This document shows, in pieces, positions 1,662 to 47,730 of a stretch of DNA of 64,000 nucleotides. A model generated the notes under the pieces. That model had not been told where the DNA came from. It ran no database searches and saw only the letters and a list, made by a program, of their open reading frames with translations. How positions within the stretch are numbered: position 1 is the stretch's first letter; each line of letters opens with the position of its first letter. The stretch is from the NCBI GenBank assembly GCA_000004985.1, contig GG738896.1. One strand, written 5' to 3'. The DNA is from Naegleria gruberi (taxonomy: Eukaryota). The translations under genes were made by a program, and so were the position numbers.

Positions 1662-2047
1662 ACCTTAAGTAGATTTGTTGTTTTGCATTCATGTTTTCGC
1701 CAAGTTTGGACTTGCCAACAACACCAAGAGTACATTTTTGAAATGTTCTTCCACATCACACAATTATCATTATCATACCATTGATTGATATGAAGAATCA
1801 GTATTTAATGATCACAATAATATCTGTTCCGTAAAGATACACTTGATCGACAAATAATCAATGGAAAAGAAATAAGGAGCTGTAAGCTAGCTTAATACAA
1901 AAAAACAAAATATTCTATGAATAATTGTGTTCAATAACAGGACAGTACAAAATTCGCGTGGTAATCAACACTCCATTGTTGTACAGATTATTCAATAAGG
2001 AATGAGAAAAACTTAATTCGTTAAGGTGTGGACACTGTCAACGTCTA

Positions 2048-2076
2048 TTGATAAATCTTAATTTAAGATATTTAAT
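2048..2076 (+). promoter_or_regulatory. Conserved AT-rich element immediately 5' of the 5S gene (candidate upstream promoter element)
   Basis: TTGATAAATCTTAATTTAAGATATTTAAT is shared (28 of 29 nt) with the 5' flank of 5S copy 3 at 20671-20699 on the minus strand. It is absent from copy 2. Confidence 0.4.
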
Positions 2077-2194
2077 GGCTACGGCCATATCACGATGAAT
2101 GCACCTCATCCCGTCCGATTTGAGAAGTTAAGCATCGTCGAGCCACATCAGTACTGAGGTTGGAGACAACTTGGGAACCTGTGGTGCTGTAGTC
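2077..2194 (+). rRNA. 5S ribosomal RNA, copy 1
   Basis: 118 nt, GGCTACGGCCATATCAC...GGTGCTGTAGTC, followed by a T-run Pol III terminator. Helix I pairs the 5' and 3' ends. Identical to copy 3 and one mismatch from copy 2. Confidence 0.9.
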
Positions 2195-2361
2195 TTTTAT
2201 TTTTTATTTATCAAGATATGATTACTTCTTTTTAGTTGGTTAAATTCTATTAACAATGTTGGAAAATGTGTTGAAAATATTGGAAGGTGAGATTTGCGTG
2301 ATTGACAATAAGATGCCTTAACTTTGCAAAGTTCATCAAGGCAAAATTAAAATCAAAAAAA

Positions 2362-3891
2362 ATGTCAGCAAAGAGTTCATTCTCTCTCCCCGTTAAGAAA
2401 AAGTCTTCAACCTCTGCCTCCTCTTCTGTATCAAGTAAAGCCAAAAAACCAGTTATTGCCTCCTCTTCATCAGCAGTTCAAAGAACACCTCCCCCAACCA
2501 TTAATCTCCCTTCCGAGGACTCTTGCAAAGTTGATGAAGTTGAACAGAGATTTGATCCCAGGTTCAAGTCACTTGCTTCCGATAATGTAATTTTAATATT
2601 GGATTTTATGGGAGGTGAAGTTACACAAGATTTGAGCTCCATTTCTCTTCTCATTAAGAATTGTTATGGTAGATTCGGAACTGATTCCTCTATTAAGTTT
2701 CTGTATCGATATGGGAGTTATTATACTAACGAGATTAATTTGGAGGGAATGATGTTTATTTTCAATGAACAATTTAGACAGTGCAAGAGATCGAACATGG
2801 AAACAAGAATTTTGAATGCCCTATGTCGCTGTTCAGGCGAAGAAAACGTTTCAGATGCCAATACAATTATTCAACAATTGGATAACTTCTCAAAGGAGAA
2901 TAGGCAATTGTGTCTATCATTCCAACAATTGAATTTTTATGGAATGGAAACATTTTGGGAAGTGATTGAAAAGTGTTTTGAGGTATTTCCAAATTTTGAA
3001 AAGTTGAAAATTGGTTTTTATCCTGATCCTCCAACAAAGGTGCCTCGACGAAACTTTAAAAGAAAGTATCATATCGACCTAGTAAGCTTCCCTAAGGCTC
3101 TAGAAAAATCAAATATGAAATGCAAAAAATTGGTCTGCCATAGAAATGTGATGAAGGGAGATTTAGCGTTCAAGTTACCACTTTTAGAGAAGTACAAAGT
3201 AATTGGAACAGATCACCTCAAACAAATAGATCATTTAGAAGAATTGAAGAATCTCAAACATCTTTGCTTAGTGTATCATGATGCAAGAACATATGGCATG
3301 GAATTTAAAGCTAATGATCCTCAATTTTTCATATCTTTATCCAAGTGCACAAACTTGACAAGGCTCAAAATTAATGGTTTGTACATGTTTGGAGAGGAGT
3401 TTATTCACATCAATAATTCTCTTCCTAATCTCACCTACTTGAATTTGAAAAAATGTTTTTGTCAAAATACTGATGGAATTTTCAATGCCATTGGAACTTT
3501 CAAAAAGTTGAAAACTCTTATTTTAGGTTCTCATGAACAAAATTGCGTTGCGAAATTAGGTAATTTGAAGCAATTAGAATACTTAGAAGCATCAGACTTG
3601 AGTGCAAAGGATGTGAACACAATCTCTCAACTCGTAAATTTGAAATCCCTTATTGCAGAAGCACTTTACATTACCGATGAAGAAGGGAAAGATTTAGAAA
3701 AATTGAAAAATCTTGAACAGTTCAAATTTTCTACTGCAGGCGATATGTATTTTGGTATGAAATTGATTACATTTTTATTCGACAATTTAAATGTGAAAAA
3801 ATATGAAATTAATACCTACAGAAATTCTCTAGATAATATTCCAAAAGATATTCAGCAAAGAATGAATGGTAGGTGCGACACAGAGAAATAA
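2362..3891 (+). CDS. F-box-like / leucine-rich-repeat protein with Ser-rich N-terminus
   Basis: First in-frame ATG of ORF 2302-3891. N-terminal poly-Ser, then an F-box-like segment (SDNVILILDFMGG...ISLLIKNCYG) and LRR-type L-x-x-L-x-L repeats. ORF is uninterrupted. Confidence 0.7.
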   Translation: MSAKSSFSLPVKKKSSTSASSSVSSKAKKPVIASSSSAVQRTPPPTINLPSEDSCKVDEVEQRFDPRFKSLASDNVILILDFMGGEVTQDLSSISLLIKNCYGRFGTDSSIKFLYRYGSYYTNEINLEGMMFIFNEQFRQCKRSNMETRILNALCRCSGEENVSDANTIIQQLDNFSKENRQLCLSFQQLNFYGMETFWEVIEKCFEVFPNFEKLKIGFYPDPPTKVPRRNFKRKYHIDLVSFPKALEKSNMKCKKLVCHRNVMKGDLAFKLPLLEKYKVIGTDHLKQIDHLEELKNLKHLCLVYHDARTYGMEFKANDPQFFISLSKCTNLTRLKINGLYMFGEEFIHINNSLPNLTYLNLKKCFCQNTDGIFNAIGTFKKLKTLILGSHEQNCVAKLGNLKQLEYLEASDLSAKDVNTISQLVNLKSLIAEALYITDEEGKDLEKLKNLEQFKFSTAGDMYFGMKLITFLFDNLNVKKYEINTYRNSLDNIPKDIQQRMNGRCDTEK

Positions 3892-4023
3892 TCAGAATAC
3901 TTTTAATTATCACTTTTACTCCTCAAATATATATTTGCGCCCTACGCTCATAATTCACTTGTCGCAATCAAAACACAAAAATAACATGATGATTATAATT
4001 AGTTCGTTTTCATCTTTAAAAAA

Positions 4024-6150
4024 ATGAAACTCACAATCCTCGTCGGATTGCTCTTGCTTTGCTTGTTGGTTTCAACACAAGCAGCCTACAACAATGAATT
4101 GGCAGACGACATTATCGACATTTTGTCTGACAGAAGAGGAGGAAGAAGATTTGCAGCACCAGCCTACACTCCACCTCCAAGACATTATGCTCCTCCACAA
4201 CCTGTCTTTAGAGCAGCACCAGTTTACACTCCTCCTCCACAACCTGTGTATCATAGACCTGCTGTTGTACATCATCCAAGACCTGTTTATAGAGCTCCTC
4301 CACAACCTGTGTATCAACCACAACCAGCAATTGCTCAACCACAACCAGTGAGAAGAGGAAAGAGAGGAAGATTTATTCCACCACAACCAGTTAGTCAACC
4401 AGCTGCTGTTCCACAACCAATAGTTGCCCAATTCCAACAACCAAGAGGAAGAAAGGGAGGTAGAGGTAAAAGAAATAATTTCCAAGCTCAAGCTCCACAA
4501 CCAACAGTTGGTCAACCAATAGCTCAATTCCAACAACCAGCTGGAAGAAGAGGTAAAAAGGGTAAGAAGGGTGGTTTCATTGGTGGTCAACCATCAATTG
4601 GTCAACCTACTCCATCAAGAGGTAAAGGAAAAGGAAAGGGAAAGAAGGGAAAGAAGGGAAATAAAGGAAATGTAGCTCCAGAAGATGGTTCCTCTCAAAC
4701 CAGTGGAAGAAAAGGTAAGAAAGGAAAAGGTGGTAAGAAGGGTGGATTATTCAGTAAAATCACTAAGGGACTCATGGGTGGCGGTGGTGCTGGTGGTAAG
4801 AAAGGAAAGGGTGGTAAGAAGAATAAGAAACAAGAACAACAAGAACAGCAAGAACAAGAACAACAAGAGCAAGAAGTTGCTGCTGCTGAACAACAAATTG
4901 TCGAACAACAAAAAGCTGCTGAACAAGATATCTCTGAACAACAAGCTCAAGTTGAGAAACAAGTTGGAGAACAAAAGCAAGAAATTGAATCACAAATTGC
5001 TCAACAACAACAACAAGCTGAACAACATATTGCCAAATTGAGAGAAGAATTGGAAGCTAGTATTCAATCTGCTAATCAACAAATTGAACAACAAGTATCT
5101 CAACAACATGAAGATTATAAGGTACAATTTAAGGCAGCTCAAGAACAACTTACACCACAAATTGAACAACTTACTGAACAACAAACTCAAATTGAAACTC
5201 AAATGACTGAATTGGCTAAAGTAGCTCAAGAACAAGAACAAGCAAAGGAAAGATTGATTGAAAAGGAAAAGAAATTGAATCAAGAATATCAACAATTAAT
5301 GGCAACTGAACAACAATTGGTTGCTCTTGCTATTGTCGAAAAAGCTCCATTGCAAACTACTCAACAACAAGCTCCTCAATTAGCTGAAACTCAACCTGCC
5401 ACAAATCAAGAAAATCAACAAGAACTTGCTGATTTGATCTATGATGTATTGTCAGATGTCTATTCCACAAAGAAAGGTAAAGGTGGCTTCCAACGTTTCA
5501 AAGCTGCCCCAACCAGACAATTTGCTGGACAACCATCAGCTCAACCTAGAGGTGGTAAGAAAGGAAAGGGTGGTAAAAAGGGTGGATTCCTTAGTAAAAT
5601 CACTAAGGGATTCAAGGGAATCATGGGAGGTGGTAAAAAGGGAGGAAAACAAGCTCCACCATCAACCTATTCCTCAAATGGTGAGATTGCTGCCCAACAA
5701 CAACAAGCTGAACAACAAATTGCCGAACAAAAGCAACAAGCAGAACAACAATTGACTCAACAACAACAAGAAATTGAACAAAAATTGACTCAACAACAGC
5801 AACAAGCTGAAGAATTGATTGCCAAGCAACAACAAGAAGCTGAAGATTTGATTGCCAAGCAACAAGCTCAATTACAAGATCAAATTCAAGCTGCTCAAAA
5901 GCAAATTGACGATCAAGCTGCTAAAATGACTGCTGATTTACAAGCTGAAACTCAAGCTACTCAAGAAAAGATTGCCAAGCAAAAGGAACAACTCGATCAA
6001 CAACAAGCTCAATTGCAACAAGTTGCTGACAAGCAAGCTACCACCCAACAAGAAATCGATGCTAAGGAAAAGGAACTTGCTGAACTCGAACAAAAATTGG
6101 CTACCTTGAGACAAGCTATTCAAAAGATTACCAATGCCAAGAAGCAATAA
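4024..6150 (+). CDS. Secreted repetitive protein: Pro-rich repeats, basic KKGKGGKKGG repeats and Gln/Glu-rich coiled coils
   Basis: Signal peptide MKLTILVGLLLLCLLVSTQA. PPQPVY-type proline repeats. A whole module (DxIxDxLSD, then K/G-rich, then FSKITKG, then Q/E coiled coil) occurs twice. Long uninterrupted ORF. Confidence 0.65.
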   Translation: MKLTILVGLLLLCLLVSTQAAYNNELADDIIDILSDRRGGRRFAAPAYTPPPRHYAPPQPVFRAAPVYTPPPQPVYHRPAVVHHPRPVYRAPPQPVYQPQPAIAQPQPVRRGKRGRFIPPQPVSQPAAVPQPIVAQFQQPRGRKGGRGKRNNFQAQAPQPTVGQPIAQFQQPAGRRGKKGKKGGFIGGQPSIGQPTPSRGKGKGKGKKGKKGNKGNVAPEDGSSQTSGRKGKKGKGGKKGGLFSKITKGLMGGGGAGGKKGKGGKKNKKQEQQEQQEQEQQEQEVAAAEQQIVEQQKAAEQDISEQQAQVEKQVGEQKQEIESQIAQQQQQAEQHIAKLREELEASIQSANQQIEQQVSQQHEDYKVQFKAAQEQLTPQIEQLTEQQTQIETQMTELAKVAQEQEQAKERLIEKEKKLNQEYQQLMATEQQLVALAIVEKAPLQTTQQQAPQLAETQPATNQENQQELADLIYDVLSDVYSTKKGKGGFQRFKAAPTRQFAGQPSAQPRGGKKGKGGKKGGFLSKITKGFKGIMGGGKKGGKQAPPSTYSSNGEIAAQQQQAEQQIAEQKQQAEQQLTQQQQEIEQKLTQQQQQAEELIAKQQQEAEDLIAKQQAQLQDQIQAAQKQIDDQAAKMTADLQAETQATQEKIAKQKEQLDQQQAQLQQVADKQATTQQEIDAKEKELAELEQKLATLRQAIQKITNAKKQ

Positions 6151-6409
6151 ATCAAAGCTTGCAGTGCACAAATCGCCTTATTGGTTCCCAATTTCATCAC
6201 ACAAGGATGGACAGCAGTAGAACCGTACTGAACAGCTTAAATAATACATTAATCTCACAAAATTGTCCATTGAATTACATCTCACTTGCTTTAACTGAAC
6301 CAATGGTTCATTTTCATAGGCAATCCTTTGTTAATCTTTCTGCGTGTTAATGGGGATAACAAGAGTGAGTGCACACGCAAAGATAAGCATTACCAAAAAA
6401 AAATTCACA

Positions 6410-7066
6410 ATGAGAGTTTTCTTATTGAGCTGTGTTATTATTGCCTTCGTGATGAGTGGCCAAACCTTGGCTCTCACATGTAATCCAGGAAGTTATGTTG
6501 GTATGTTATTTAGTGTTCTTGATCATTATCGACCATTTATAGGAAAATTACAAGGAAACGATGCATGTCTTCCGTGTGGAGTTGGTTACTTTTGTGCCAA
6601 TGGAATCACTCAAGAAAAGTGTGCCTTCAACACCTATTCTTCTGGCTCTGCTACCTCATGCACAGCATGCCGTAATTCCAATAGAGGAACTGATGCTGCC
6701 AATTCTGCCTGTTTGTTGCCAAATACACCAGCCAATGCTATTGAATTTACTAAAACAATCACCGTTGATTCCACAAAGCTTATTTCAACATTCACCAAAT
6801 TGAATTTGGCTGGTTACGATTATGTTGATGTTCGTATCAAGCAAACACCACTCAATCCAAATGTTCCAATTACCAATATTAAAGTTTATGGCCACAGAAG
6901 CACTGGATTCCCTGGACCTGGTAAATATGATGGATTTGAGAATAGTAAGGAACCATTTTTGAGTTATGACAATGATTCTAGTGGTGATATCTTGTACTTG
7001 TCAATTTATGCTCATCCAGACACAATGTTGACTATTGATTTGCAAAGAGTCAAGAATGGTCAATAA
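6410..7066 (+). CDS. Secreted Cys-rich protein (GCC2/GCC3- or TNFR-like cysteine repeat)
   Basis: In-frame ATG with predicted signal peptide MRVFLLSCVIIAFVMSGQTLA. Spaced cysteines CLPCGVGYFCANG...CAFNTY...CTACRN. Confidence 0.55.
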   Translation: MRVFLLSCVIIAFVMSGQTLALTCNPGSYVGMLFSVLDHYRPFIGKLQGNDACLPCGVGYFCANGITQEKCAFNTYSSGSATSCTACRNSNRGTDAANSACLLPNTPANAIEFTKTITVDSTKLISTFTKLNLAGYDYVDVRIKQTPLNPNVPITNIKVYGHRSTGFPGPGKYDGFENSKEPFLSYDNDSSGDILYLSIYAHPDTMLTIDLQRVKNGQ

Positions 7067-7160
7067 ACCAATTAGAAGTTTAAACCACAGTCAGATTAAT
7101 TCAGATTTCAAGAATCCTTAGTCATATATTCTTCTCAATACTCTATATTGTTTCTTTGAT

Positions 7161-7233
7161 TGTATGTTCAATCCAAAATTTGTTCCAAAGTTTGATCATT
7201 AGAAATTGTATTATTTGTAGTTTAGGATATTGC
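7161..7233 (-). repeat. Dispersed repeat / gene fragment, about 90% identical to 16128-16200 (5' coding end of the gene at 16128-17182)
   Basis: The reverse complement aligns with CAATATCCGAAACTACAAATAATCCAATTTCTAATCATGATCAAACTTTGGAACAAATTTTGGAT at 16128. The partner copy abuts an assembly gap, so the full extent is unknown. Confidence 0.5.
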
Positions 7234-7737
7234 TGTTTTACCAGACGAGTTGGGACAAAGAAGAAGAATATTTTTATGATTTTGTATGCTTGGAAAGCAT
7301 GTATATTGTAGAAGAATTCACATTCAATTTTCCTATCCATCTCTATCATTGCATGAATGGTTTTGTCCATGACGTGTCATTAACAAGGAAAAGATGCATT
7401 ATTGGATAAACAAGAACGAGAATGCTGCCATTGATTGTGTTAATACCATTGCTAGAATGGTCATTACTGATCATTCCCAATAAGTTCAAAAGAAATTGTT
7501 CAGGAAACGAAATTATTGTAAATATTAATTATTATCTTTGTTATAAAAGTATAGATAGTGAAATTTTGGCATATTTGGAAATAGTTTTTCAATATGATTT
7601 TTCAAAAGAACTTCTGAACAAGATCCATCTTTTTATTTTGGTTTAGTTTTTCCAGAACAAAATGGCAAATGCAATGCGGTGCAAAGGCTATGAGATTTAT
7701 TTGACACGCAGATGATTAGTGACGTACTAACAAAAAA

Positions 7738-10700
7738 ATGTCACAACAGCAGTTCATTGAAATTTACATTTCCAACTACAAGACCATCACACCTGATGAT
7801 CGTCACACTAAACCCTACACCAATTACATTCTCGATATTTCTCTCCAATCCGATAAAAATCCTCAAGAAATTTTCTATCAATGGTCAATAGAATATCGAT
7901 ATTCACAATTGAGAAGTTTTCACTCTCTACTTTCCAAGTACTTTAAAAAGCTTCCGACATTTCCTCCAAAAGTAAGTTTAATTTTTTTAAATATTTTAAT
8001 TTTTTTTAAATATTTAATATTTTGTATATTTTGTAAATTAGAAATTATTTAATAGATCATCGGAAATGATTGAAAAAAGACTTGTGGAATTAAAAAAGTA
8101 TTTTAAACAATTATTTAAAAATAGAAATGATATATTTAACAAATCGGGAACTCTTTCGTTTATTTTGAAATTTATCAACATTCCAAATGAATTAATGCAA
8201 TATGTAATAGTTACAAAAGATGATTTAAATTCGGTGGATTCTCTCACTTTTTTAAATTCAAAACTTGACAAGTCAATTGAATCTCCTTTTTGTAAAGTAA
8301 TTTTCCATAAGGGAGTGAGATATAAATTATCGAAATTTATTGGAAATGGTACATATGGTAAAGTTTATCATTCTGTCGATGATTCAGGATATGAGTATGC
8401 AATTAAGGAAATTCCTGCATTGTATGTTGATACAATGTTTGTGGAAAACAATGTAAAACTCATCTCTGAATGTAATGAAACATTTCTGAGATATATATTG
8501 AGAATTTTAGATACATTTCAAATTGCTAATAACTATTATGTCGTTACAGAATATTTTAATAAGGGATCTCTTAATAATATACGAAATGATGTGAAAATGA
8601 GTGTTTCTACAATTTTACAAATAATTATACAAATGGTCACTTCATTAAGATTCTTAAATTCAAAGAAAATGGTACATTTGGATATTAAGGAGGGAAACAT
8701 TTTTGTTCAATTCTTTAATGGACATCGAATTTCACTAATTTTAGGAGATTTGGGATTGAGTAGAAAAATTAATCCTTCCATTCAATTGAATACTATTAAC
8801 AATAATATTAATAATATAGAAATAGTTAAAGAAAGCTTATTCGAATCATTATCCAGTTCTGCATCTGTTGGAACACCATTATATCAAGCTCCAGAAATGT
8901 TACAACAAGAAAATCCTTTCATTCATGAAAAGAGTGATATTTATTCTTTAGGTTGTACAATATTATATTATTTATTTGGTAAAATTAAAGTATTGAATCA
9001 AGAAAAAGAATTAGATTGGGAAAAGATCAATTCTCTCTTTCAAAAACTTGAAGAACCAGAATGGAAATATATTTATGAATTGTTACAAAAAATGTTAACA
9101 ATTGATGTTAACGAGAGAGCAGACACCAAAACAATACTTGATTTTATATTTAAAAAACAAGATGCATTGCCATCGGAAATGAATGAAGAAAAAAGAAATC
9201 AATTCATCCTGGACGAAATGGAAAGTATTGATTTACTAACAAGTTATGTAAAATTACAAGATTATTTCAAAACAAGTGATTCCATAATAAGAGATTCTCT
9301 TTATGAAAATGGAAATCAATTGGAAGATTTACCAGAACATTTTAAAAACAATTCCAACTATTTTAACATTGCAGCTCAACAAAATTCAATGTTGCATAAA
9401 GACTCAGATCAATTTAATTATTATCTAGAGCTAGCTGCTGATTCGAAACCAAATAACAATGAAATTACTCTCCTTACAAAAAATTCCTCTGAACAAAACA
9501 GAAATGATTACTACTTTGCTTTGAGTTCAGTTTCAAAGGACGGAAAAACTTTAAGATTTGTTGGACATCTTTTGAAAATGAATAGAACTATTGTAATGAC
9601 AGCTGTGAAACAAAATCCATTGGCAATTCAATATGCCCCCAGTTCATTAAGGAAAGATAAGGAAATAGCAAAGGAGGCCCTTGTTTACAATGGCAGAACT
9701 TTGGAATATTTAGAAGAGTTACAAGATGATGAGGAAATTGTACTCGCAGCTGTTTCTGTTCATGGAATTGCCATAAAATTTGCTTCTCCAAGATTGAGAT
9801 CTCACGAAAATATAATCAGACGAGCTGTCAAAGTTGATGAACGTGCCATTGAATATGCTGATACTTCAAATTTATCACTGAAATTATTATTTGAAATTAT
9901 TTGTCAAAATATTGATGCATGTTATTATTTGAAATATGACGAAAAGTTAGTGATGGACTATGTGAAACAAACCAATGATAGCAATGCGAAAACATTTCTA
10001 TTGTTAATGGAAAAAAAGGTATCCATGTCGAAAATGATTCAATTGGCCGACGATATTGGAAATCCACTTGCCCAACTTTATGTTGCCCTACATAGAAGGG
10101 ATAATCCTGAAAGAATGCTCAATGCTGCCAAGCAAGGTAATTTACAAGCTCAATTGATATTGGCACGTTGGTTACAGATGTATGGACATGTTGATTCGGC
10201 AGTGGATTGGTTGAAAAAATGTGCCTCCCATTCATATCTTCCTGCAATTGTTTTTCTCTGTTCATTACTTGATCCAGCTACGGATGGTGAATGGTTTTTG
10301 AAAGGGGCTCATTTAGGAGATGGTGAAATTCAATACGTTTATGGCTTATCAATTTTTTATGAAAAAAATCGTACTCAAATTAATTATCAGGGATTTTATT
10401 GGTGTAAACGAGCTGCTCATCAGGGGTTTCCTAGAGCTCAATATCACATGTCTCAATGTTACAAGTATGGATTAGCAGTTAATAGAAATCCTGAGAAGGC
10501 TTTCAAATGGATGAAACTAGCTGCAGAGAATCAAGTGATAGTAGCTCAATATCAACTTGGATTATTTTATGGAGGTGGAAAAGGAACTGTGCAAGATGTC
10601 AAAAAAGCATTTTACTGGTTAGAAACTTCTGCCAAAAAGAAAAATTGGGTTGCCTTAAATGAACTTGGACTAATTTATATGAAAGGTCGTTATGATGTTA

Positions 10701-11062
10701 AAGTAAATTATGATAAGGCAATTGAATATTTCAAGAAATCTCTCCAAACCCTTGAAGATTACAAAAATAGTCCCATTAGTGATGATTTTGATCCGTTTGT
10801 AAATCCTCCAAAAGGTAATGGTGAATATCTCTATTTAAATATTGGAGAATGTTATTTCCTTAAACAGAAACGTGAGGAAGGAATTGAATGGATGATGAAA
10901 AGTATTTCATTAGGATGTGAATATGCAGTAGAAGTATTGGAAGAGTATACAGGTATCGTTGTTAGTACAGATGCCGTAGGGTGGCAAAATTATTGTTTTA
11001 ATAATACAGAGGAAGTAATTTTGAATATGCATAGAGCTGTAGATAGCAAATCACAAGAATAA
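7738..11062 (+). CDS. PX-domain protein kinase with DUF4116 and Sel1 repeats (2 exons: 7738-7971, 8042-11062)
   Basis: Exon 1 encodes the PX core (RYSQLRSFHSLL...PTFPPK). A 70-nt intron runs from GTAAGT at 7972 to the AG at 8040-41. Exon 2 continues the PX domain (FNRSSEMIEKRLVELKKYF). It then carries a kinase domain (GNGTYGKVY, AIKE, HLDIKEGN, DLG, APE), DUF4116 repeats (AIKFASPRLRSHENIIRRAV) and C-terminal Sel1 repeats. Confidence 0.75.
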
Positions 11063-11073
11063 GAGAAAGATAA

Positions 11074-11856
11074 TTAAAGCTGTTTTATTAGAATATTAAC
11101 ATTGAGGACAAACTTTTCAAAACAATGAGCCATGAAATTGAAGATTCTTCTTGGAATGCTTGTTTCTGCCAACATACTGACATCTCTTCTTGGGAAATCA
11201 TGATGATTATCGTGTTCATTTACATGGTGGACATGGTGTCCAACAAGAATTTCAAGAACAAGATTGATATCAACATATTTTTGGAAAGGATAATACTTGT
11301 CAACGAGTGAATCGAACCAACCTTCTTCATGAGCAAGAGTTGTGAAAACCATAAAGATTACAGACATGACAAGTCTACTCATTATCAAGTGACACATATA
11401 AGCCAATGGATTCATCAACAAGAATGGAAGAAGCAACAATACCAATCTACTGAAATACATGAGTGCAGTGTATCTTTTAGGTTCAGTCTTATTCTTCCTC
11501 TTCAAATAGCATTCATTATAATACAAATCAAATACTGAACTTCTCTTGAATAATATCCAACGATTTGGGGAGGATTTAAACCAATAGTCTGGATCAATCT
11601 TCATAATTTGTTTCTTTCTATAGGCAATATCAGCACGAGTCAAGTAACCAAGAGTCCATCTTCCTCCTAAGAATAAATAAACAGGCGATAAGGTAACCAT
11701 TTGGGTCATTATGCCAACACCTGCATAATTCATTAGAGCCATGGAAGCAAGTGGGACAAAACCTGAAACTAAATTGCAAGCCATCGAGGAAAATTTATCA
11801 TGAGCAACTTCCTTTCCTTTAACTGGATATCTGCCGTGTTGAGTTTGTTTAGCCAT
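11074..11856 (-). CDS. Multi-pass membrane protein with C-terminal His-box motifs (HxxHH ... HDNHHDFP); desaturase/hydroxylase-superfamily-like
   Basis: Real ATG at 11856. Several hydrophobic segments. GHHVHHVNEHDNHHDFP resembles the HNEHHDFP box of sphingolipid delta-4 desaturases. The first His box is not evident, so family assignment is tentative. Confidence 0.5.
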   Translation of the reverse strand: MAKQTQHGRYPVKGKEVAHDKFSSMACNLVSGFVPLASMALMNYAGVGIMTQMVTLSPVYLFLGGRWTLGYLTRADIAYRKKQIMKIDPDYWFKSSPNRWILFKRSSVFDLYYNECYLKRKNKTEPKRYTALMYFSRLVLLLLPFLLMNPLAYMCHLIMSRLVMSVIFMVFTTLAHEEGWFDSLVDKYYPFQKYVDINLVLEILVGHHVHHVNEHDNHHDFPRRDVSMLAETSIPRRIFNFMAHCFEKFVLNVNILIKQL

Positions 11857-12155
11857 TGTTGATGAGGGTATTTGTGTTGTTGTTTTTTTTTGTTGGAAAA
11901 GAGTAAAAGCATTTGCGAAGGCCTTTTATACTCTCGCTTGGCAACAAATTTTGTTTTTTTTATTTTTAAACTTTTGAGGCCACAAATTTTATTGTGCCAT
12001 TAAGCTTAAGAAGAACAACAAAGTCATGGTTAAAAGCTGTAGTTATGCACAGTGATATTTGATTAGTGTTCAGCACCCGTACTAACGTTTTTTTTCTCTT
12101 TAAAAATACAATGATGATGACTCTGTTGAACTCCAAACAAGTTATTCATGGGAAG

Positions 12156-12890
12156 TTACATTAGCAATAGATGTATTACTATCACTTCCACTATCAACAG
12201 CAATAGAGGTGATATTACCACCGAACAAGTGGGAATATCTATTAAAGTTTTGAAATCTCTTCTTTCGTGAGTCAGTATAGAGGGAACATTGGTAAAGATT
12301 TTCACAATATAATCCAGTTCACTAAAATCATTGCCACTAATCGTAGTAGTATTGGTTATTTCCAATATATTTTCAATAGCTTTTCCAAATTGAACACGAA
12401 CTCTGAGATCCTCTACTTGTTTATCTGTGAGTATCATCATTATCATCATCCTCTACTGGCCAGATATTTGCACTTCTCCCATAACTATCCTCTTTTGCTC
12501 GGCCATTTTCAAATCCAAATCAGTACACTTCTTTTTGGCAACAGATTCTGAATCTAGTGCTTGTTCCAGTTTTCTTCAAACGATTGCATTCACTATGTAA
12601 TTCATCAAGATCCTTATTTAATTCATTTTGTTGCTGGATTAATTTTTATTGGAATTCACTCTGTTGTTGGACTAGTTTTTCTTGGAATTCATTTTGTTGT
12701 TGGATTAATTTTTCTTCAAAATATATCTTTTGCTCTTCCAACTGGATTTCATTATTACCATAGTAGTAGTTCTTGAAACAATTTCTTCATTAGTGGGATG
12801 AGTTCTTGAAACAATTTCATTAGTACGCTTTGTCTCAGAAGCCTTCTTCTTTGTGCTGGAAGTGACTACAGTAGTGTACATTTGTAAAAA
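12156..12890 (-). pseudogene. Degraded coiled-coil gene: 33-bp tandem repeat with an in-frame nonsense change and frameshifts
   Basis: Minus-strand reading from ATG near 12888 gives ...EEKLIQQQNEFQEKLVQQQSEFQ*KLIQQQNEL.... The stop is a G-to-T change inside the third unit (CAAGAAAAA vs CAATAAAAA). Downstream coding-like sequence lies in two other frames (ORFs 12156-12449 and 12267-12551 fragments). Confidence 0.3.
12631..12730. repeat. Three imperfect tandem copies of a 33-bp unit
   Basis: ttgttgctggattaatttttattggaattcactc / tgttgttggactagtttttcttggaattcattt / tgttgttggattaatttttcttcaaaatatatc. Confidence 0.7.
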
Positions 12891-13084
12891 ATACCTTTAC
12901 TTATTGTGTCACTCATCATGTCTCACACAACCATTAATAAAAGAAAGCCTAAGTGATTGAGTATACGGAGGAGGAAACACGATATTATGGGGCAAAGGAA
13001 AATAGAATATATTAAGGTTGACTCATATTAGCACAAAGTAATAAATTTTATTGAGCTTTCATCAACGATCTTGTTAAAAAGTAT

Positions 13085-13345
13085 TTACAAAGGTACAATC
13101 TGTAATCCAAACACACATTCTTTTCTATCGTAATTAAAATCTCTAAAAATTAATTTCACATAAAACAAGTCTGGATTCAAATGAAATGGTCTGATGCAGG
13201 TGATGAACATCATCCCAAACTCCAAAAGTAAGTTATCTGGAATTCTAATGGCTGTTCCTGAGTGAGAAATTATGTCTTCATTGGTGAGGACATGGTTTTC
13301 TTTCTTGGATTTAAACAGAAATTCATCTGTACATCCACCATTCAA
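13085..13345 (-). CDS. Possible exon of an unresolved multi-exon gene (unknown function)
   Basis: 86-codon ORF with coding-like composition. Splice-like signals upstream (ACAG|GTTTGA ... AAAG|TTC) suggest further exons in 13346-13650. No recognisable domain. Confidence 0.25.
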   Translation of the reverse strand: MNGGCTDEFLFKSKKENHVLTNEDIISHSGTAIRIPDNLLLEFGMMFITCIRPFHLNPDLFYVKLIFRDFNYDRKECVFGLQIVPL

Positions 13346-13897
13346 ATCGCCATCTTTACAAAAATGAACTTTAGGATTTGCTCGACGTGATTTTTAGTCA
13401 ACCTTAATATATTGAGAAAGATCAAAATAGGGAGTGTTTATTGGTAGGTTCCCAATTATTTGTAAAAATCTACAGTTCTTTCAAACCTGTCATTTTGCAA
13501 TTGATAAATTGTAACAGAGGATGGATCGATATTCATTCCTAATTCAGGGAAGATGTGAATAGGATCGGAAATAAATGTTAACATTAAGCAGTTTTAAATG
13601 GAAACAGTCACTTGTGAAAAGGAACAGTAATATAAAATTCCAGGAATGTGATGGTATCAACACAATAGAATGTATTTCATTACAAGCAAGGATGTACCAA
13701 GTAACTCTTTAAGGGCTCAAATGTATTCAAAACAATCTAATGGATGAATCTAAATTTTCAAATCTATTAACATAATTACAAAATCTTCCAATTTATGATA
13801 GTTTTAGTGATTAAGTATTAAAATTACATATCAAACACTTTTATTAGACGGTAATTAAAAGTACTAGGTCAGTTATCACTAATACATTCTAAATTGA

Positions 13898-15658
13898 TTA
13901 CTTTCTCTTCTTCTTCTTATTCTCCTCAGTTGCCAAACTAGTCAACTCTCCTCTTTCCAAACTTTTAAATTGTGCAAGATCTTTTTCTCCAACAACAGCA
14001 GCCATATTAGCCAAATAGGTATCAATCATTTCTTCATTGGTAATATTCATCTCAACATAATAAGGAGTTCCATACCAAGTATCCCAATCATTTTCCTCAC
14101 TAAACACTTTTTCAATGTCATTAATTGGAATTCTGTCCTTTCTTCCCTTTCTTGGGATTTTACATGCTTGGCAATAGTAAAAGTGATTGTGAAGTTGGTA
14201 GTGAACTATTACAACAACGTGGTCATTTAAAAGTTTGCCATGAATGAAGAATCCTTTTCTGAAAAGCTCAATTGGGTTTTTGAATATAATTTCCAAACTG
14301 CAAAATCTCTCAAATTCCATAATTCCAATGCTTTTGTAATTCTGTTTGGTGACTTGGCAATTTTCAACCTTGTCAATGTCAATTGTGTTTCTGAATTTGA
14401 TGATAAATATTTCAGTATCTTGTTTCAAGTAAGCATCAAATAGAGAATAACAAATATCGAAACAGAAAGAGCTGGTTGATGTATCAAAGTATGCGAATCC
14501 AATACGACAAGTGGCAGCTTGAGTCTCTCTTTCAAAATCAAGTTGTTGAGCTGTAGAAGTTCCCAATGCCTTCTTAATAATGAGATAGACCCCATTCAAA
14601 AGTGAACTTCCTCCATCAGGATTACAACAAGTAGTAAATTCAATTTTTGAATAGTCCTTGAACTCATCTTTGAGATAATCTTTTTGTCTATTGACATAGT
14701 CTTCCAATTTTTCAACAGAAATATATTCTTCGACTAATTTTCTGAAATAGGCATGTGAAACAAAGCCACCACATACAATAACATTCTTACAACGATATTG
14801 AAGGATAACATCAAGAATTGGTTCAGCAATCTCTGCAACACCCTCTGTGAAACAACTTTCCAAATTGGAATATTGCTCCGGTAACTTGTCAGAATCTCTG
14901 TCATTGAAAAGTGCCTTCATTACCATCATTGTATCAATTGAACTATCCATCTTCTTGATCTTCTCATGAATGAGTGAGATTCCTCTTGTTTCACCACTCA
15001 CTTGAATGATTTTTTCATCTTTCTTAACAATTGAATCAGAAGTCAAACAACCAACATCTACAACAATACAGCTACTTGAATCATCTAAATGGAGGAGTAA
15101 TGAATATTCCTCAATGATGTAAACATCACTCATTCCAATAGAACTGTTTAAGAAGGTCATTCCAATAACTTCATGAGCAATTTTCTTGAATCTCCTCTTA
15201 ACTTCAATGTCAGTATCGGTTGGAACTGTGAAAATGAAGCATTTAGCTTCATAACAATTCTTTTCTCCCTTTTTAGGAAATGTACATGAAGTCATGAGTA
15301 ATTTCAAAAACTCTTTCAACAAATATTCAACTTGAAACTCTTTTCCTTCAACAGAAATAGTTTTTTGATCCAATACAGTGAACCATTTCTTGATGCTTGG
15401 AAATAAAATTGAAGAATCTGAAACTTTTTGTAAAGAAAACTTCTTTGAAAGTTTACAATAGTAAAGCCAGGTCTTTACAAATTCAACACTTGTTCCAAAA
15501 TCTGATGAAGATTTCATAGGAGAGAAAGTAATAGTATCACAATTCAAACTGTTTCCCTTAATTTGAAACTTCTTTCCTTTACAAAAGCTTGATCCAATGT
15601 CAAATGCCAAAATATTGGAATATTCACTTTTCAAGTTGAAAACTCCTGAATTGAACAA
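13898..15658 (-). CDS. Actin/Hsp70-superfamily ATPase-fold protein with basic C-terminus (5' end incomplete)
   Basis: Phosphate-1-like ILAFDIGSSFCKG and phosphate-2-like VVDVGCLTSDSIV motifs. C-terminal KKKKRK. No ATG near the ORF start (a TTG after an in-frame TAG). A GTAAGT donor at 15770-15775 on the minus strand and the adjacent gap indicate that upstream exons are in or beyond the N run. Confidence 0.55.
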   Translation of the reverse strand: MFNSGVFNLKSEYSNILAFDIGSSFCKGKKFQIKGNSLNCDTITFSPMKSSSDFGTSVEFVKTWLYYCKLSKKFSLQKVSDSSILFPSIKKWFTVLDQKTISVEGKEFQVEYLLKEFLKLLMTSCTFPKKGEKNCYEAKCFIFTVPTDTDIEVKRRFKKIAHEVIGMTFLNSSIGMSDVYIIEEYSLLLHLDDSSSCIVVDVGCLTSDSIVKKDEKIIQVSGETRGISLIHEKIKKMDSSIDTMMVMKALFNDRDSDKLPEQYSNLESCFTEGVAEIAEPILDVILQYRCKNVIVCGGFVSHAYFRKLVEEYISVEKLEDYVNRQKDYLKDEFKDYSKIEFTTCCNPDGGSSLLNGVYLIIKKALGTSTAQQLDFERETQAATCRIGFAYFDTSTSSFCFDICYSLFDAYLKQDTEIFIIKFRNTIDIDKVENCQVTKQNYKSIGIMEFERFCSLEIIFKNPIELFRKGFFIHGKLLNDHVVVIVHYQLHNHFYYCQACKIPRKGRKDRIPINDIEKVFSEENDWDTWYGTPYYVEMNITNEEMIDTYLANMAAVVGEKDLAQFKSLERGELTSLATEENKKKKRK

Positions 15659-15822
15659 TCTTCGACTGGATCTAAATTGTCTCTAGGTAATTCTCCAAGT
15701 TTGTCAAGTTCAATTTTAAGATCGTCAAGATATTTATCAATCTACTGACATTCGAATAGAAGATCAACTCTACTTACCTGACTATCAGTTGGAATATGAT
15801 CTTTCAAAGATTTTGAAACTGG

Positions 15823-16127
15823 NNNNNNNNNNNNNNNNNNNNNNNNNNNNNNNNNNNNNNNNNNNNNNNNNNNNNNNNNNNNNNNNNNNNNNNNNNNNNN
15901 NNNNNNNNNNNNNNNNNNNNNNNNNNNNNNNNNNNNNNNNNNNNNNNNNNNNNNNNNNNNNNNNNNNNNNNNNNNNNNNNNNNNNNNNNNNNNNNNNNNN
16001 NNNNNNNNNNNNNNNNNNNNNNNNNNNNNNNNNNNNNNNNNNNNNNNNNNNNNNNNNNNNNNNNNNNNNNNNNNNNNNNNNNNNNNNNNNNNNNNNNNNN
16101 NNNNNNNNNNNNNNNNNNNNNNNNNNN
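15823..16127. other. Assembly gap (305 N)
   Basis: Run of N. Genes on both sides are truncated by it. Confidence 1.
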
Positions 16128-17182
16128 CAATATCCGAAACTACAAATAATCCAATTTCTAATCATGATCAAACTTTGGAACAAATTTTGGATGAACATTG
16201 TCGAATGATGTTTTTGGATATTCTATTCGATATGAAAGAGTTTACGATGGATGAAATATTTGATAGGAATGATGGAGATATTAATTGTGAAATGGAAAGT
16301 GTTGTAGAATCATTCAAGGGATGTCCAAAAAATGGATGGAATTCAGTATTGGATCAATATTCGTATAAAGTTTATGCTAATTTGTGGATTAATTATCCTA
16401 AACTGAGAGAAATATTTGCGAAATCATTGATAGTGTTTGTTCCAGTAGAAGTGATTGTGAACTATGATCAATTTTTTAGATTAATTAATAAGGGAGAAAT
16501 CTCAATGAATCAACTGAAATTTATTCGAATTCAAGGGGATAGAACTCGAGAATTAAAATTGGAAATAGGGAATGAATCTTTCTTACTGGTTGATGTTAAG
16601 AAATACACAACATTAGGCAATAGACAAGCCCGTTTAAGGAGATGGCAAGAACTTAATTCCAATGCCAAATTTGGAATCGTTATTCAAAGTCTCATTAGTT
16701 TCGATCATCCTTTTGAATTTTCTGAATATGAATTCTTTGATTCGATTGGAATTATCAAAGAATATTTAACCCATAAGGCATCAAAGGAATTGCGAATTGT
16801 TTTCATGTTTACAATGGCCGATTTACTATATGAAAAATCAACTTTCCAATCCAAGAATTTGAAAGAACCCACTAGAGATCGAATAGAATTGAAACATATT
16901 GGAAATATGAATAAGGAACGAGATTTGATTAATTCAGTTCTTGACTTTTATCAAAACGTGTTTGAGACTTTCAGAGAGAATGAAAAATTCGAGTATCATA
17001 TTATTAATAATCTGTCCACTGATGAATCATATCAAGCACTGATAGAATCGAATAAGGAAAACGATGATCCAACCAAGCAGGTCATTATTTCTAGATCATT
17101 GATAAGGCGTTCGCTGGGAGTTTTATACAAAATGATTGGTCAATCACAATTATCAGATGTAAGCATTCGTATCACCGATTAG
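16128..17182 (+). CDS. Hypothetical protein, 5' partial (reading frame is open from the gap edge)
   Basis: The in-frame reading is open from 16128 with no stop (..ISETTNNPISNHDQTLEQILDEHCRMMF..) and continues to the TAG at 17180-82. No recognisable domain. Confidence 0.5.
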
Positions 17183-17359
17183 AAAAGAAATAATATTGAA
17201 AAGAAACTTTGACTAGTTTCGAATAAGCTGTTGTTTAAATTCAGAGATTAGAGATTCACCAAGTTCTAGGCTACTCAAATGTATAGGCGAAAATAGTGAT
17301 GATTTAATTATCAATATATATATCCATATATCAATTATTATAATTTAATTCTTGATCTT

Positions 17360-17689
17360 TTGGAACCAGAGGAAGTTGAAATTGATATTGGTGATGATAT
17401 GGATGATGATCCAATCCAACCAGTTACTCATCAATCAAGTGGAGGATATGATCCAGAATTTGAAGAAATGAAGAAGAAATTCAAAAAACCAACTGGTGCC
17501 TCAGAAGGTTGTGTTAATTGCATTATGAAGGAATATATGAAGACTAAAGCTAACACTGAAAAGTTTGGTATTGGTGCTAATCCTGACAATGTAAGCTATG
17601 AGCTTTTACAATTCAACTCTTCCTGGGCCTTCAAAGAAGACAATTTCGAGAGTCATTTTGATTTAGAGTTATATGTTTTTGTTGGATAG
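17360..17689 (+). CDS. Possible small acidic protein / exon (uncertain)
   Basis: 109-codon ORF with acidic N-terminus DDMDDDPIQP. An internal GTAAGC at about 17591 could be a donor. No convincing ATG context. Confidence 0.25.
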   Translation: MEPEEVEIDIGDDMDDDPIQPVTHQSSGGYDPEFEEMKKKFKKPTGASEGCVNCIMKEYMKTKANTEKFGIGANPDNVSYELLQFNSSWAFKEDNFESHFDLELYVFVG

Positions 17690-17734
17690 GTTGAAATAAT
17701 ATTGTAAAGTGATGATAATTTTGACATGGTGAAT

Positions 17735-17852
17735 GGCTACGGCCATATCACGATGAATGCACCTCATCCCGTCCGATTTGAGAAGTTAAGCATCGTAGAG
17801 CCACATCAGTACTGAGGTTGGAGACAACTTGGGAACCTGTGGTGCTGTAGTC
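17735..17852 (+). rRNA. 5S ribosomal RNA, copy 2 (variant)
   Basis: 118 nt with one substitution relative to copies 1 and 3 (CATCGTAGAG vs CATCGTCGAG). T5 terminator. Lacks the conserved upstream element of copies 1 and 3. Confidence 0.9.
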
Positions 17853-17989
17853 TTTTTAACTTTTCCTTAATGTTGATTTCAAAAAAAGCAATACAAAGCC
17901 GAAATTGGTCCCACTAAGGAAATGAAAGGAAATGAGGGTATTATTCCAAAATAAATAATATATAAAACATAGTTCCCTGACGATGATTA

Positions 17990-18386
17990 TTAATATGATT
18001 GGTTGCTGTTATTCGAATGCCAAGCGGCTAATGATGTCACAGGTAAAAAATCTTCCAATCCAATCTTTTTCAAAGATGATGTTTCAATGTAAGTAATGTA
18101 ACCAGTACGTCTTGCAATATCTTCTCCTTCCTCAAAGGTAATTGGCTTTCGAAGATTTGAGTGTTGGAATACAGAATACCTTTCGTCAATTTTACACTCA
18201 CATCCCTTTTGCTTTCGTGCGTATATCAGGAATGAATTTTTCAATTGACAATGTCAAAGACTTCAATGACCAGACAGAGAAACAAACACAACATAAATTG
18301 GCAATTGGATAAAATACAGTTTTTGTTCCATAACCTGTACGACAAGCTAAATTCCACATTTTCATACTAACTGTATTCTCCTTCAA
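17990..18386 (-). pseudogene. Degenerate Rho-family GTPase paralogue (pseudo-GTPase or pseudogene)
   Basis: Collinear with the Rho domain at 38693-39310: ENTVSMKMWNLACRTGYGTKTVFYPIANLCCVCFSVWS vs [41 protein letters not shown]. The switch II DTAGQ is replaced by NLACR. PIILVGTK (G4, NKxD) is lost through deletion and frameshift around 18230-18250. No upstream G1 exon was found. The C-terminal ITFEEGEDIARRTGYITYIETSSL segment is retained. Confidence 0.4.
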
Positions 18387-18767
18387 TTGAACTCACAATT
18401 ATCATAAATTTCTGGAAAATTTTCATATAATCCATCTGTTCACTTGTTAATTTTAGAATTTCATGAATTCAATAAATTTTGCTATAATTAATATTTCCAC
18501 TTTTGGCAACCCATTTCATTTAATTCATTAACTTTCACTTGGTAGTTTCGATTTGTTTCATCCTCAAATAATCTTCCATCAAAAGAGATCGTGAGAATGG
18601 ATAATAATTATTAGAAATCAATAAAAGGTTTCCGATAGTATGTAAATCTAGAAATTTAATTCAGTGATCGATCTTTCTAATAACATTTTTTTGAGCTAAT
18701 ATTTCAAACTATTTCAAACTAAATATACATTGCCGAAACTGAGCTTGGCAATACATGTACAGGGCTG

Positions 18768-20216
18768 TTAATGCGACTTGTTATGTTGAAATAAATCTTG
18801 TATGCAACGAAAAGGACTTTCCAAACTTAAACAAGCAATTATTATAATATCCTTATCATTTCTTATTAATGGATCTTCAACAAATTCAAGTAAACTTCCT
18901 CGTCTGTAAACAGCTTCCTTTACAACATCATAATCATTCCTAAGCACATAGGACGCAAATTTGATTGATTCTGGATTGCTTTTGACAGAAGCCAGCATGA
19001 TTTCCTTATTATTTCTTAATGAAATAGGGACATGCTCAATTGCATTTCCACTGGGGAATGTAACAGCATCTAAAACAATATCAAAATCATCCTGTAGTTC
19101 CTTAGGTACAAACTTTAAAGCATCACCATTCCATCTTACTGCAATTTTAGCAATTTCCTTTTTGTTTTTCAATCGGTCAGAGGCAAATTGTAAAGCTAGT
19201 CCATTTTTCTCCACTGCAATTCGAACTATTTCTTCATCATCCTTAAATTCCTCACTTGTATTTTTAAGGGAAAGTGGCGAATAACCAACACATTCCTTTA
19301 CAATAGCCCGTAAATATTCCTGTTTGAGTTTACAATTCTCTTCAAAATCCTGTGTTAAAAATATCCTTTCATTCCACATTTGAAATTCATGGGCTATTTC
19401 CAACATCTCCTTGTGTGTGAAGGGTTTCGTTTCATGCGACATTAACCTCTTTACAATGTTTTTCACATCACTATTGCTCTCCTCTTCTCTATAATCGTAG
19501 TAAAACTTGAAATCATGGTACGTTTCATAATTGTGAAATCTGAAAAAATCACCATAAATATTAATGGCAACAGAGTGTAATTCCTTTTTAAGTCTGAGAG
19601 AAGCAAAATCATAAGCAATTACTTCATCACAAGCAAAATCATCGATAGCATCGTTATTGAACAAATAAAAAGCATCTGAATACATGGCTGCTATCACAAC
19701 ATCCACATCATCTCGCAATTCTTTTGAAGCAAATTCAAGAGCTAGCCCACAAGTAGAGACAGCTGCCAAAGCTGCTTTCTTATTGTTTCCACATTCTTTT
19801 TGATACCAATCAAGAGAACAAGGATTAAGTGCACATGCCACTTGACTAAACTCCTCATAAATATATAAATTCAACGTCCCTCCAATGTCAATACTATCTT
19901 CACTGCTAAATTTAAATAATTCTTCCGTAATATATTGTCCATCTCTTTTCCAATTCAATTTTAATTGTTCAAAAGCAAATTCCCTTTCATCATTGTCTTG
20001 ATTACATTTTTCAAAGGCCTTTAGGATAGGGTGAATAATCAATTCGTATTTCACATTTTTTGGAACATCACGAATTTGTTGCATTAAAATTGGAGATTTA
20101 AAACTTTGATCGAGAAGTATTCGTACATGGGAAGAGTTGGAATTGATATTGTCGTAGGTTGCCTTCTTTTTGAGAGGAGGTGAGGAAACGGAATTCTCTA
20201 GGCAACTTCTTTTCAT
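18768..20216 (-). CDS. DUF4116-repeat protein
   Basis: Real ATG at 20216 (the ORF track begins 9 nt upstream at a GTG). At least four DUF4116-type repeats (ALEFASKELRDDVDVVIAAM; ALQFASDRLKNKKEIAKIAV; ALKFVPKELQDDFDIVLDAV; ...). Confidence 0.7.
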   Translation of the reverse strand: MKRSCLENSVSSPPLKKKATYDNINSNSSHVRILLDQSFKSPILMQQIRDVPKNVKYELIIHPILKAFEKCNQDNDEREFAFEQLKLNWKRDGQYITEELFKFSSEDSIDIGGTLNLYIYEEFSQVACALNPCSLDWYQKECGNNKKAALAAVSTCGLALEFASKELRDDVDVVIAAMYSDAFYLFNNDAIDDFACDEVIAYDFASLRLKKELHSVAINIYGDFFRFHNYETYHDFKFYYDYREEESNSDVKNIVKRLMSHETKPFTHKEMLEIAHEFQMWNERIFLTQDFEENCKLKQEYLRAIVKECVGYSPLSLKNTSEEFKDDEEIVRIAVEKNGLALQFASDRLKNKKEIAKIAVRWNGDALKFVPKELQDDFDIVLDAVTFPSGNAIEHVPISLRNNKEIMLASVKSNPESIKFASYVLRNDYDVVKEAVYRRGSLLEFVEDPLIRNDKDIIIIACLSLESPFRCIQDLFQHNKSH

Positions 20217-20552
20217 TTTTTCCACTTTCGAATTTTAATTTTCATGCTATGAAATAGATAGAATTTCGTCCATTGATCAATGGTATAGAGGCGATTGGAA
20301 TAGTTTGAGACATTTTGGAGTTGAAACAAGAGATGATGAAATATTCTTCCTTTACGACATTTTTGGAAAAAAATAGAGTCAAAGTTGAGGGATCCAAAAA
20401 AGGAAATACTAAATATTTTTAAAAAATAAAAACGGAATTATGGAGCATATCATCTACACGATCAACTGACTAAAAATCGACAAAAAATAACATATATTGA
20501 ACTAGAAAATATAAAATTATTAATCATTACCCCCCATTTAAATCATTAAAAA

Positions 20553-20670
20553 GACTACAGCACCACAGGTTCCCAAGTTGTCTCCAACCTCAGTACTGAT
20601 GTGGCTCGACGATGCTTAACTTCTCAAATCGGACGGGATGAGGTGCATGAATCGTGATATGGCCGTAGCC
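20553..20670 (-). rRNA. 5S ribosomal RNA, copy 3
   Basis: Reverse complement is identical to copy 1. Poly-T terminator on the minus strand at 20548-20552. Conserved element on its 5' side at 20671-20699. Confidence 0.9.
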
Positions 20671-20699
20671 ATTAAATATCATAAATTAAGATTTATCAA
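20671..20699 (-). promoter_or_regulatory. Conserved AT-rich element 5' of 5S copy 3 (same as 2048-2076)
   Basis: The reverse complement TTGATAAATCTTAATTTATGATATTTAAT matches the copy 1 flank at 28 of 29 positions. Confidence 0.4.
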
Positions 20700-20859
20700 A
20701 AGAATGTGCTCTGATTCGAATATGGAATAAACTCAGGTATGCAATTAGGATGAATACTACATTCACCAATTCTAAATATACAGATTCAAATTGATGAGTT
20801 TGTGGATTATGTTATACTAGTAATATTCTAATTTTGGAAAGTTTAATTTTAAAAAAAAA

Positions 20860-47659: not shown

Positions 47660-47730
47660 GTGCATTAGCCGGGAGTCGAACCCGGGTCACCAGCTTGGAA
47701 GGCTGGTATGATACCGTTACACTACTAATG
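47660..47730 (-). tRNA. tRNA-Gly (anticodon TCC), copy a
   Basis: 71 nt. GCATTAGTAGTGTAACGGTATCATACCAGCCTTCCAAGCTGGTGACCCGGGTTCGACTCCCGGCTAATGCA. Anticodon arm CCAGC-CTTCCAA-GCTGG. Confidence 0.9.

Follow-up and report, generated by a model that had tools for sequence, protein, structure and literature searches.

Does a short sequence that stands directly upstream of some 5S ribosomal RNA (rRNA) genes, and not of others, represent a promoter element preserved by selection, or is it what is left of the event by which one gene copy was derived from another? This question is raised by a stretch of 64,000 nucleotides from Naegleria gruberi (GenBank assembly GCA_000004985.1, contig GG738896.1), called the window in the following, in which three 5S rRNA genes (copies 1 to 3 in the order of their positions) lie among protein-coding genes, and in which copies 1 and 3 have an AT-rich element of 29 nt in common immediately 5' of the gene. 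The reading that we consider probable is that the three genes are intact members of a dispersed nuclear family of approximately 279 copies, and that the flank shared by copies 1 and 3 is the remnant of a local duplication or gene conversion and not a general promoter.

The 64-kb window was searched with the Rfam covariance model RF00001 at a gathering score of 38 bits. Exactly three full-length 5S rRNA matches were obtained (E-values of 1e-20 to 2e-22), each of them extending over model positions 1-120 out of 120 and scoring more than 60 bits above the threshold (Table 1). Their coordinates agree within 1 nt with those of a preliminary description of this DNA, which had also placed the genes in mixed orientation. 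In the first 30 kb, further copies or fragments of 5S genes were not detected by a permissive scan either, and the Rfam search of the window gave no match to small-subunit (SSU), large-subunit (LSU) or 5.8S rRNA. According to a search for open reading frames (ORFs) and domains, ORFs with clear protein domains separate the copies; the genes are solitary and without a regular period, and no 18S, 5.8S or 28S gene is adjacent to them. The view of the preliminary description that the genes are single and dispersed, being neither arranged in tandem nor connected with an rDNA unit, is confirmed by the solitary genes, by their unrelated flanks and by the lack of SSU, LSU and 5.8S matches in the window.

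For the internal control region, the consensus patterns of box A and box C were those of Feng et al. 2012 (PLoS One 7:e36878, PMC3369914). Box A (NSYYAANCNNNNNNN) is located at +50-64, where no position deviates from its pattern, and box C (NNGRTGGGNGWCCNYNNG) at +80-97 with 2 mismatches, both matches being identical in 3 out of 3 copies. The pattern of the intermediate element (SNNRRN) matches +61-66, and is too degenerate to be informative. According to the same publication the 5S genes of N. gruberi possess an internal control region as well as an upstream TATA box, end in T-run terminators and are not linked to rDNA. With box A and box C at their canonical positions the three copies resemble the Xenopus-type (type 1) promoter of RNA polymerase III (Pol III). 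The internal region of the Xenopus genes is read by TFIIIA, whereas for N. gruberi BLASTp and PSI-BLAST searches are reported to have yielded no TFIIIA (PMC3369914).

The 29-nt element (TTGATAAATCTTAATTTAWGATATTTAAT) occurs exactly twice in the window, each time directly 5' of copy 1 or copy 3, and it was matched 0 times in 100 shuffled sequences. The two cores are identical at 28 out of 29 positions and differ by a single A/T exchange, as the preliminary description had noted. With a repeat finder the shared unit is detected as a pair of inverted arms (2044-2198 and 20549-20703) of 155 nt and 97% identity, which comprises the gene together with the flank. Beyond this unit the arms of copies 1 and 3 have nothing in common at the DNA or protein level (sensitive blastn and tblastn) except for an unrelated repeat of 70 nt, so that the earlier statement about unrelated outer flanks is upheld. 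The arms share nothing else, and the shared unit is therefore only about 155 nt long. We also considered whether copies 1 and 3 delimit an inverted segmental duplication of approximately 5 kb and of older date. The idea came from the 70-nt repeat, which is itself inverted and whose centre almost coincides with that of the 5S pair; it was rejected on the basis of the same blastn and tblastn comparison. The 70-nt repeat contains ATGATCAAACTTTGGAAC and has no match in Rfam. It may be derived from paralogous genes, as a short first exon, or be an artefact of contig ends.

To extend the comparison, metagenome contigs were scanned with an internal 23-nt stretch of the 5S gene, leading to 14 loci; the same 5S core had 0 matches in bacterial and archaeal genomes and in viral contigs. 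One of the loci (L010), on an independent environmental contig, is a solitary 5S gene with 99% identity to copy 1. Upstream regions were compared for 13 loci, namely copies 1-3, L010 and nine environmental loci with usable upstream sequence. The 5S genes of these nine are 78-85% identical to copy 1 and occur singly beside ORFs, with flanks that are mutually unrelated. Of the 78 possible pairs only that of copies 1 and 3 is similar (33 of 40 upstream positions identical); in the remaining 77 pairs the number of identical positions out of 40 is 13 in the median and 21 at most. The 29-nt element is absent upstream of copy 2, as was seen before, and it is absent upstream of L010. The only upstream features that copy 2 has in common with other loci are the hexamer TGTAAA and the trinucleotide AAT at -3..-1.

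A hexamer was regarded as TATA-like if it was within one mismatch of TATAAA, and starts between -35 and -20 were counted (matches of copies 1-3 and L010 in Table 1). In this zone such a hexamer is present in 8 out of 12 independent loci compared to 3.28 in shuffled flanks (P=0.004; the flanks are 78-82% AT), and 8 out of the 9 TATA-like matches in the 50-nt flanks fall into this zone (P=0.0016). Across the loci it is only the TATA-like hexamer near -30 that recurs, not the 29-mer. The proposal of the preliminary description, that the shared element is a conserved promoter component, may hold for the hexamer as a candidate, but not for the 29-mer as a whole, which is missing from copy 2 and L010. 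We looked for a motif common to the upstream regions of 5S and tRNA genes in the window and found nothing convincing.

Some further observations concern the environmental contigs. The loci on metagenome contigs VFQM/VFQO (L006-L009, L011-L015, L017 and L018) belong to an AT-rich protist with 34-38% GC. Their 5S genes are pyrimidine-rich at -4..-1 and often have a TATA-like box near -30, e.g. ACTATAAA in L018. An SNF2 helicase flanking the 5S gene on an environmental contig has its best named full-length match in N. fowleri, with 32% identity.

The genes of the window are part of a published set. Table S1 of Feng et al. (PMC3369914) lists 279 N. gruberi 5S genes with coordinates, by which the window can be matched to about scaffold_52:192,004-256,003 and each copy to one entry (Table 1). 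The spacings of the three entries are 15,658 and 2,813 bp in Table S1 compared to 15,658 and 2,817 bp in the window. All three genes have been on record since 2012, and they belong to an ordinary, known Pol III gene family. Copy 1 falls into the largest similarity class of Table S1 (161 of the 279 rows); copy 2 ranks one step lower and copy 3 two steps lower, which is to be expected from one and two substitutions, respectively. While the genes are the same, neither the shared 29-nt flank nor the individual variants are discussed in those parts of the publication that are considered here.

We analyzed the published coordinates of the 279 copies, which are distributed over 117 scaffolds with a median gap of 33.9 kb between neighbours on the same scaffold. 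Only one gap is smaller than 1 kb, and it involves a partial match; three equally spaced copies do not occur among the 279 coordinates. As the published positions are scattered, the genes are therefore dispersed, despite the entry "tandem: Y" in Table 1 of PMC3369914. The scatter is nevertheless uneven, since gaps below 5 kb were observed 32 times compared to 9.3 expected at random, with a maximum of 21 in 2000 simulations. A genome size of 41 Mb was assumed for this random placement. For the cluster in the window, with its three copies within 18.6 kb, the corresponding expectation is 0.13. This excess of close neighbours points to frequent small local duplications, of which it may be the signature. 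The 18S-5.8S-28S cistron of Naegleria is carried by an extrachromosomal circle of 14 kb in thousands of copies (PMC5805870), which leaves 5S as the sole type of rRNA gene on the chromosomes.

A similar arrangement is seen for tRNA genes. Four identical tRNA-Gly(TCC) genes are found within 7.4 kb of the window in mixed orientation, and they share flank units of 146 nt at 93% identity, of 229 nt at 98% identity and of ~100 nt in 4 out of 4 genes. Judged by these flanks they appear to follow the same pattern of local duplication as the 5S copies. Genes for tRNA Pro, Lys and Ala are located at 35.3-39.6 kb.

The mechanism that we propose is the following. Each 5S gene would be a self-contained Pol III unit that is controlled from within by a type-1 region comprising box A and box C, the AT-rich 5' flank with a TATA-like hexamer approximately 27-32 nt upstream would position TBP/TFIIIB, and a run of at least four T residues would end transcription. 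New copies would arise through small local duplications at the DNA level, and gene conversion would exchange sequence among the copies, keeping the gene bodies near-identical while the flanks diverge. The identity over 29-33 nt between copies 1 and 3 would then be identity by descent from one duplication or conversion event, with a tract that ran from about -33 to +122 and that may have included the TATA-like core by chance.

One must keep in mind that several points weigh against this interpretation. Only four loci of the N. gruberi type were compared, and the 29-mer could recur at many of the 276 others. The sharp limit of the identity at -33 amid unrelated flanks would also be expected from promoter selection. 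The enrichment of the TATA-like hexamer rests mostly on the nine environmental loci, and the hexamer test is weak in sequence with 75-80% AT. The working of the Pol III unit is a prediction from the sequence, and in view of the reported lack of TFIIIA a classical type-1 mechanism is not secure.

The alternative to be considered first is that selection has preserved the 29-nt element as the upstream promoter of a 5S subfamily, in which case genes with and without the element would differ in the level or the conditions of their transcription. The near-perfect identity of the element and its abrupt end in otherwise unrelated flanks would suit such a role, as would its extent from -1 to -29, which is the TFIIIB zone of Pol III genes and here contains GATAAA; the reported absence of TFIIIA would raise the importance of upstream elements in general. 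However, two out of the three independent loci of the N. gruberi type (copy 2 and L010) do without the element and their genes are intact, and no second pair with similar upstream regions was found among the 13 loci. Flanks that are equally tight occur at the tRNA-Gly genes, where local duplication readily explains them, and the genome-wide excess of neighbour pairs at 1-5 kb points in the same direction. On balance we consider the promoter explanation unlikely.

Whether all three copies may yield a functional RNA is judged here from their gene bodies, which differ from each other at 1-3 positions in pairwise comparison. The sole difference between copy 2 and copy 1 is C63A (position 17797 of the window), the point substitution that had been noted before. 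Copies 1 and 3, which had been described as identical, are not: positions 21-22 read GA in copy 1 and TC in copy 3 (window 20650-20649). In all minimum free energy (MFE) structures the three-arm 5S fold (helix I; helices II-III; helices IV-V) is formed around a three-way junction, with energies of -41.5, -41.5 and -37.6 kcal/mol and z-scores of -2.6, -3.0 and -1.8 for copies 1, 2 and 3. Copy 2 thus has the same predicted structure and energy as copy 1. Its substitution is situated in a two-base bulge of helix II that is unpaired in the Rfam model, A being the model consensus at this position, and position 63 is an unspecified position within the box A consensus. Asked about in the preliminary description, a disruption of a helix by the C-to-A change was not found. 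The helix-disrupting change belongs to copy 3 instead, in which the G21-C58 pair of helix II is lost, leaving one base pair fewer at a cost of 3.9 kcal/mol; a non-canonical pair is flagged at the corresponding positions 21/58 of RF00001.

These results bear on the possibility that at least one copy is silent or gives a non-functional RNA. The preliminary description had suspected copy 2 of being weakly expressed or a pseudogene. This suspicion finds no support in a copy that has the best Rfam score of the three and a predicted fold like that of copy 1, and in which both boxes as well as a T5 terminator are preserved. No truncation, indel or loss of a box was found in any of the three genes. 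No copy resembles a pseudogene, and copy 3 carries the sole variant that is predicted to weaken the structure. If any copy is impaired, the candidate would be copy 3 and not copy 2: besides the lost pair and the higher MFE its Rfam score is 5 bits lower, and it falls into a minority similarity class of Table S1, the lack of the shared element being the one feature that could be held against copy 2. Against impairment stand box A, box C, terminator and TATA-like hexamer, which are kept in 3 out of 3 copies, the wide distance of all scores from the Rfam threshold, and the unpaired consensus base in copy 2. A silent or non-functional copy is therefore rather improbable in our estimation.

A more far-reaching version of the promoter explanation would see in the 29-nt flank the mark of a subfamily which is driven mainly by a gene-external promoter, compensating for the absence of TFIIIA, with genes of the copy 2 type being regulated differently. 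By analogy to the oocyte and somatic 5S genes of Xenopus, such subfamilies might be regulated differentially e.g. at the switch from amoeba to flagellate. We regard this version as very unlikely.

It could further be asked if the similarity of the copies is an artefact, caused by 5S reads misplaced in a draft scaffold. The window contains assembly gaps at 15823-16127 (305 N) and 21125-21911 (787 N); copies 2 and 3 lie on a contig of 4,997 bp between them, and one gap is abutted by the 70-nt inverted repeat. This contig is ungapped, therefore the opposite orientation of copies 2 and 3 is secure, while the distance of 15.7 kb between copies 1 and 2 includes a gap and hence an estimated gap length. 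The copies can be told from one another by unique flanks and by individual variants, and the solitary gene of L010 on its independent contig is nearly the same as copy 1, so that misplacement of reads is extremely improbable. Two further features of the region can be attributed to the runs of N. The overlapping "ORFs" at 15785-16208 and 21010-22032 are spurious, and the dip in GC content to 0.196 (19.6%) at 20001-22000 is an artefact.

The chance that the 155-nt unit is mobile or retroposed, as a 5S-derived short interspersed nuclear element (SINE) or a Pol III retrocopy, is practically negligible in spite of the many dispersed copies in both orientations, and here we agree with the preliminary description: a Pol III transcript would not include the 33 nt of upstream flank, and the shared sequence lies upstream of +1; copy 2 shares the gene body only; the gene is of full length and its own terminator follows directly, with no tail and no additional body; the outer flanks are unrelated; and no target-site duplication is present, i.e. 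there are no direct repeats of at least 5 nt between the 25-nt sequences flanking the unit at copy 1 or copy 3.

The features of the window are compiled in Table 1. Apart from N. gruberi itself, the closest relatives of the translocase adjoining copy 1 are found in Willaertia and in other Naegleria species. In N. lovaniensis, N. fowleri and Willaertia magna the surroundings of the translocase gene show no synteny, nor is there a 5S gene within +/-10 kb of it. The kinase with Sel1 and DUF4116 repeats, together with the low GC content, could suggest Glomeromycotina as the source of the DNA; this origin was rejected because of the 100% identity of the translocase ORF to an N. gruberi protein. For an ORF of 708 amino acids (aa) at 4024-6150 (+) no match was obtained in Pfam; it has a high content of Q, E and K as well as 33-nt periodic repeats and probably codes for a low-complexity coiled-coil protein. 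The AT skew reaches 0.34 at 4001-6000, in the region of this ORF. Between two of the tRNA-Gly genes an ORF of 559 aa at 53035-54714 (+) consists nearly entirely of 24-residue leucine-rich repeats (...ISEMKQLTSLNISGNRIGDEGAK...), and its DNA is a 72-bp tandem array of ~20 units at 53308-54759.

Table 1. Positions of the 5S rRNA genes, of their predicted control elements and of further features in the window; R numbers and scaffold coordinates are those of Table S1 in PMC3369914.
Feature	Position in window	Strand	Remarks
5S copy 1	2077..2195	+	RF00001 105.4 bits; R33744, scaffold_52:194080-194196
5S copy 2	17735..17853	+	RF00001 106.5 bits, top score of the three; R33745, scaffold_52:209738-209854
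5S copy 3	20552..20670	-	RF00001 100.3 bits; R33463, scaffold_52:212551-212667, agreement within 6 nt
29-nt core, copy 1	2048-2076	+	shared flank 2044..2076
29-nt core, copy 3	20671-20699	-	shared flank 20671..20703
TATA-like GATAAA, copy 1	2050-2055	+	-27..-22
TATA-like TGTAAA, copy 2	17703..17708	+	-32..-27
TATA-like GATAAA, copy 3	20697-20692	-	-27..-22
TATA-like TATAGA, L010			-22
Box A, copy 1	2126-2140	+	
Box C, copy 1	2156-2173	+	
Box A, copy 3	20621-20607	-	
Box C, copy 3	20591-20574	-	
Terminator, copy 1	2195..2205	+	T4 (2195-2198, from last gene base), A, T6
Terminator, copy 2	17853-17857	+	T5
Terminator, copy 3	20552-20548	-	T5
70-nt inverted repeat	7164-7232 / 16128-16198		92% identical; right copy abuts assembly gap
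ADP/ATP translocase ORF	810-1661		adjoins 5S copy 1; 100% identical to N. gruberi predicted protein
Leucine-rich-repeat protein ORF	2302-3891		between 5S copies
Kinase + DUF4116 + Sel1 repeats	8066-11062	+	998 aa; between 5S copies
DUF4116 protein	18768-20225	-	485 aa, six DUF4116 repeats; between copies 2 and 3
tRNA-Gly(TCC)	47661-47731	-	
tRNA-Gly(TCC)	49264-49334	+	
tRNA-Gly(TCC)	52794-52864	-	
tRNA-Gly(TCC)	54994-55064	-	

Dispersed 5S families are known from Neurospora crassa, Schizosaccharomyces pombe, Yarrowia lipolytica and Acanthamoeba castellanii, in which tens to hundreds of solitary 5S genes lie among genes of RNA polymerase II, in both orientations and with near-identical gene bodies and unrelated flanks. 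The 5S genes of N. crassa and S. pombe need a TATA box near -30 in addition to the internal elements. N. gruberi has a like organisation, but belongs to a different supergroup (Heterolobosea, Discoba), and its large rRNA genes are not chromosomal. The TATA-like box near -30 in N. gruberi is a candidate counterpart of the TATA box of N. crassa and S. pombe. The 5S genes of Trichomonas vaginalis are reported to combine a TATA box with an internal control region and to be arranged in tandem, and TFIIIA was found (as cited in PMC3369914). The combination of TATA box and internal region is reported for both T. vaginalis and N. gruberi, whereas the genes of N. gruberi are dispersed and TFIIIA was not found.

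Beyond correct annotation the locus is of little importance in itself; what the window presents is the 5S family of N. gruberi in its normal state. For curators two corrections follow: the "tandem" score in Table 1 of PMC3369914 is contradicted by that paper's own coordinates, and the statement that nuclear DNA of Naegleria contains no rRNA genes is true only for 18S, 5.8S and 28S. The 279 upstream flanks would offer an easy route to the upstream promoter of Pol III in a member of the Heterolobosea for which searches have yielded no TFIIIA.

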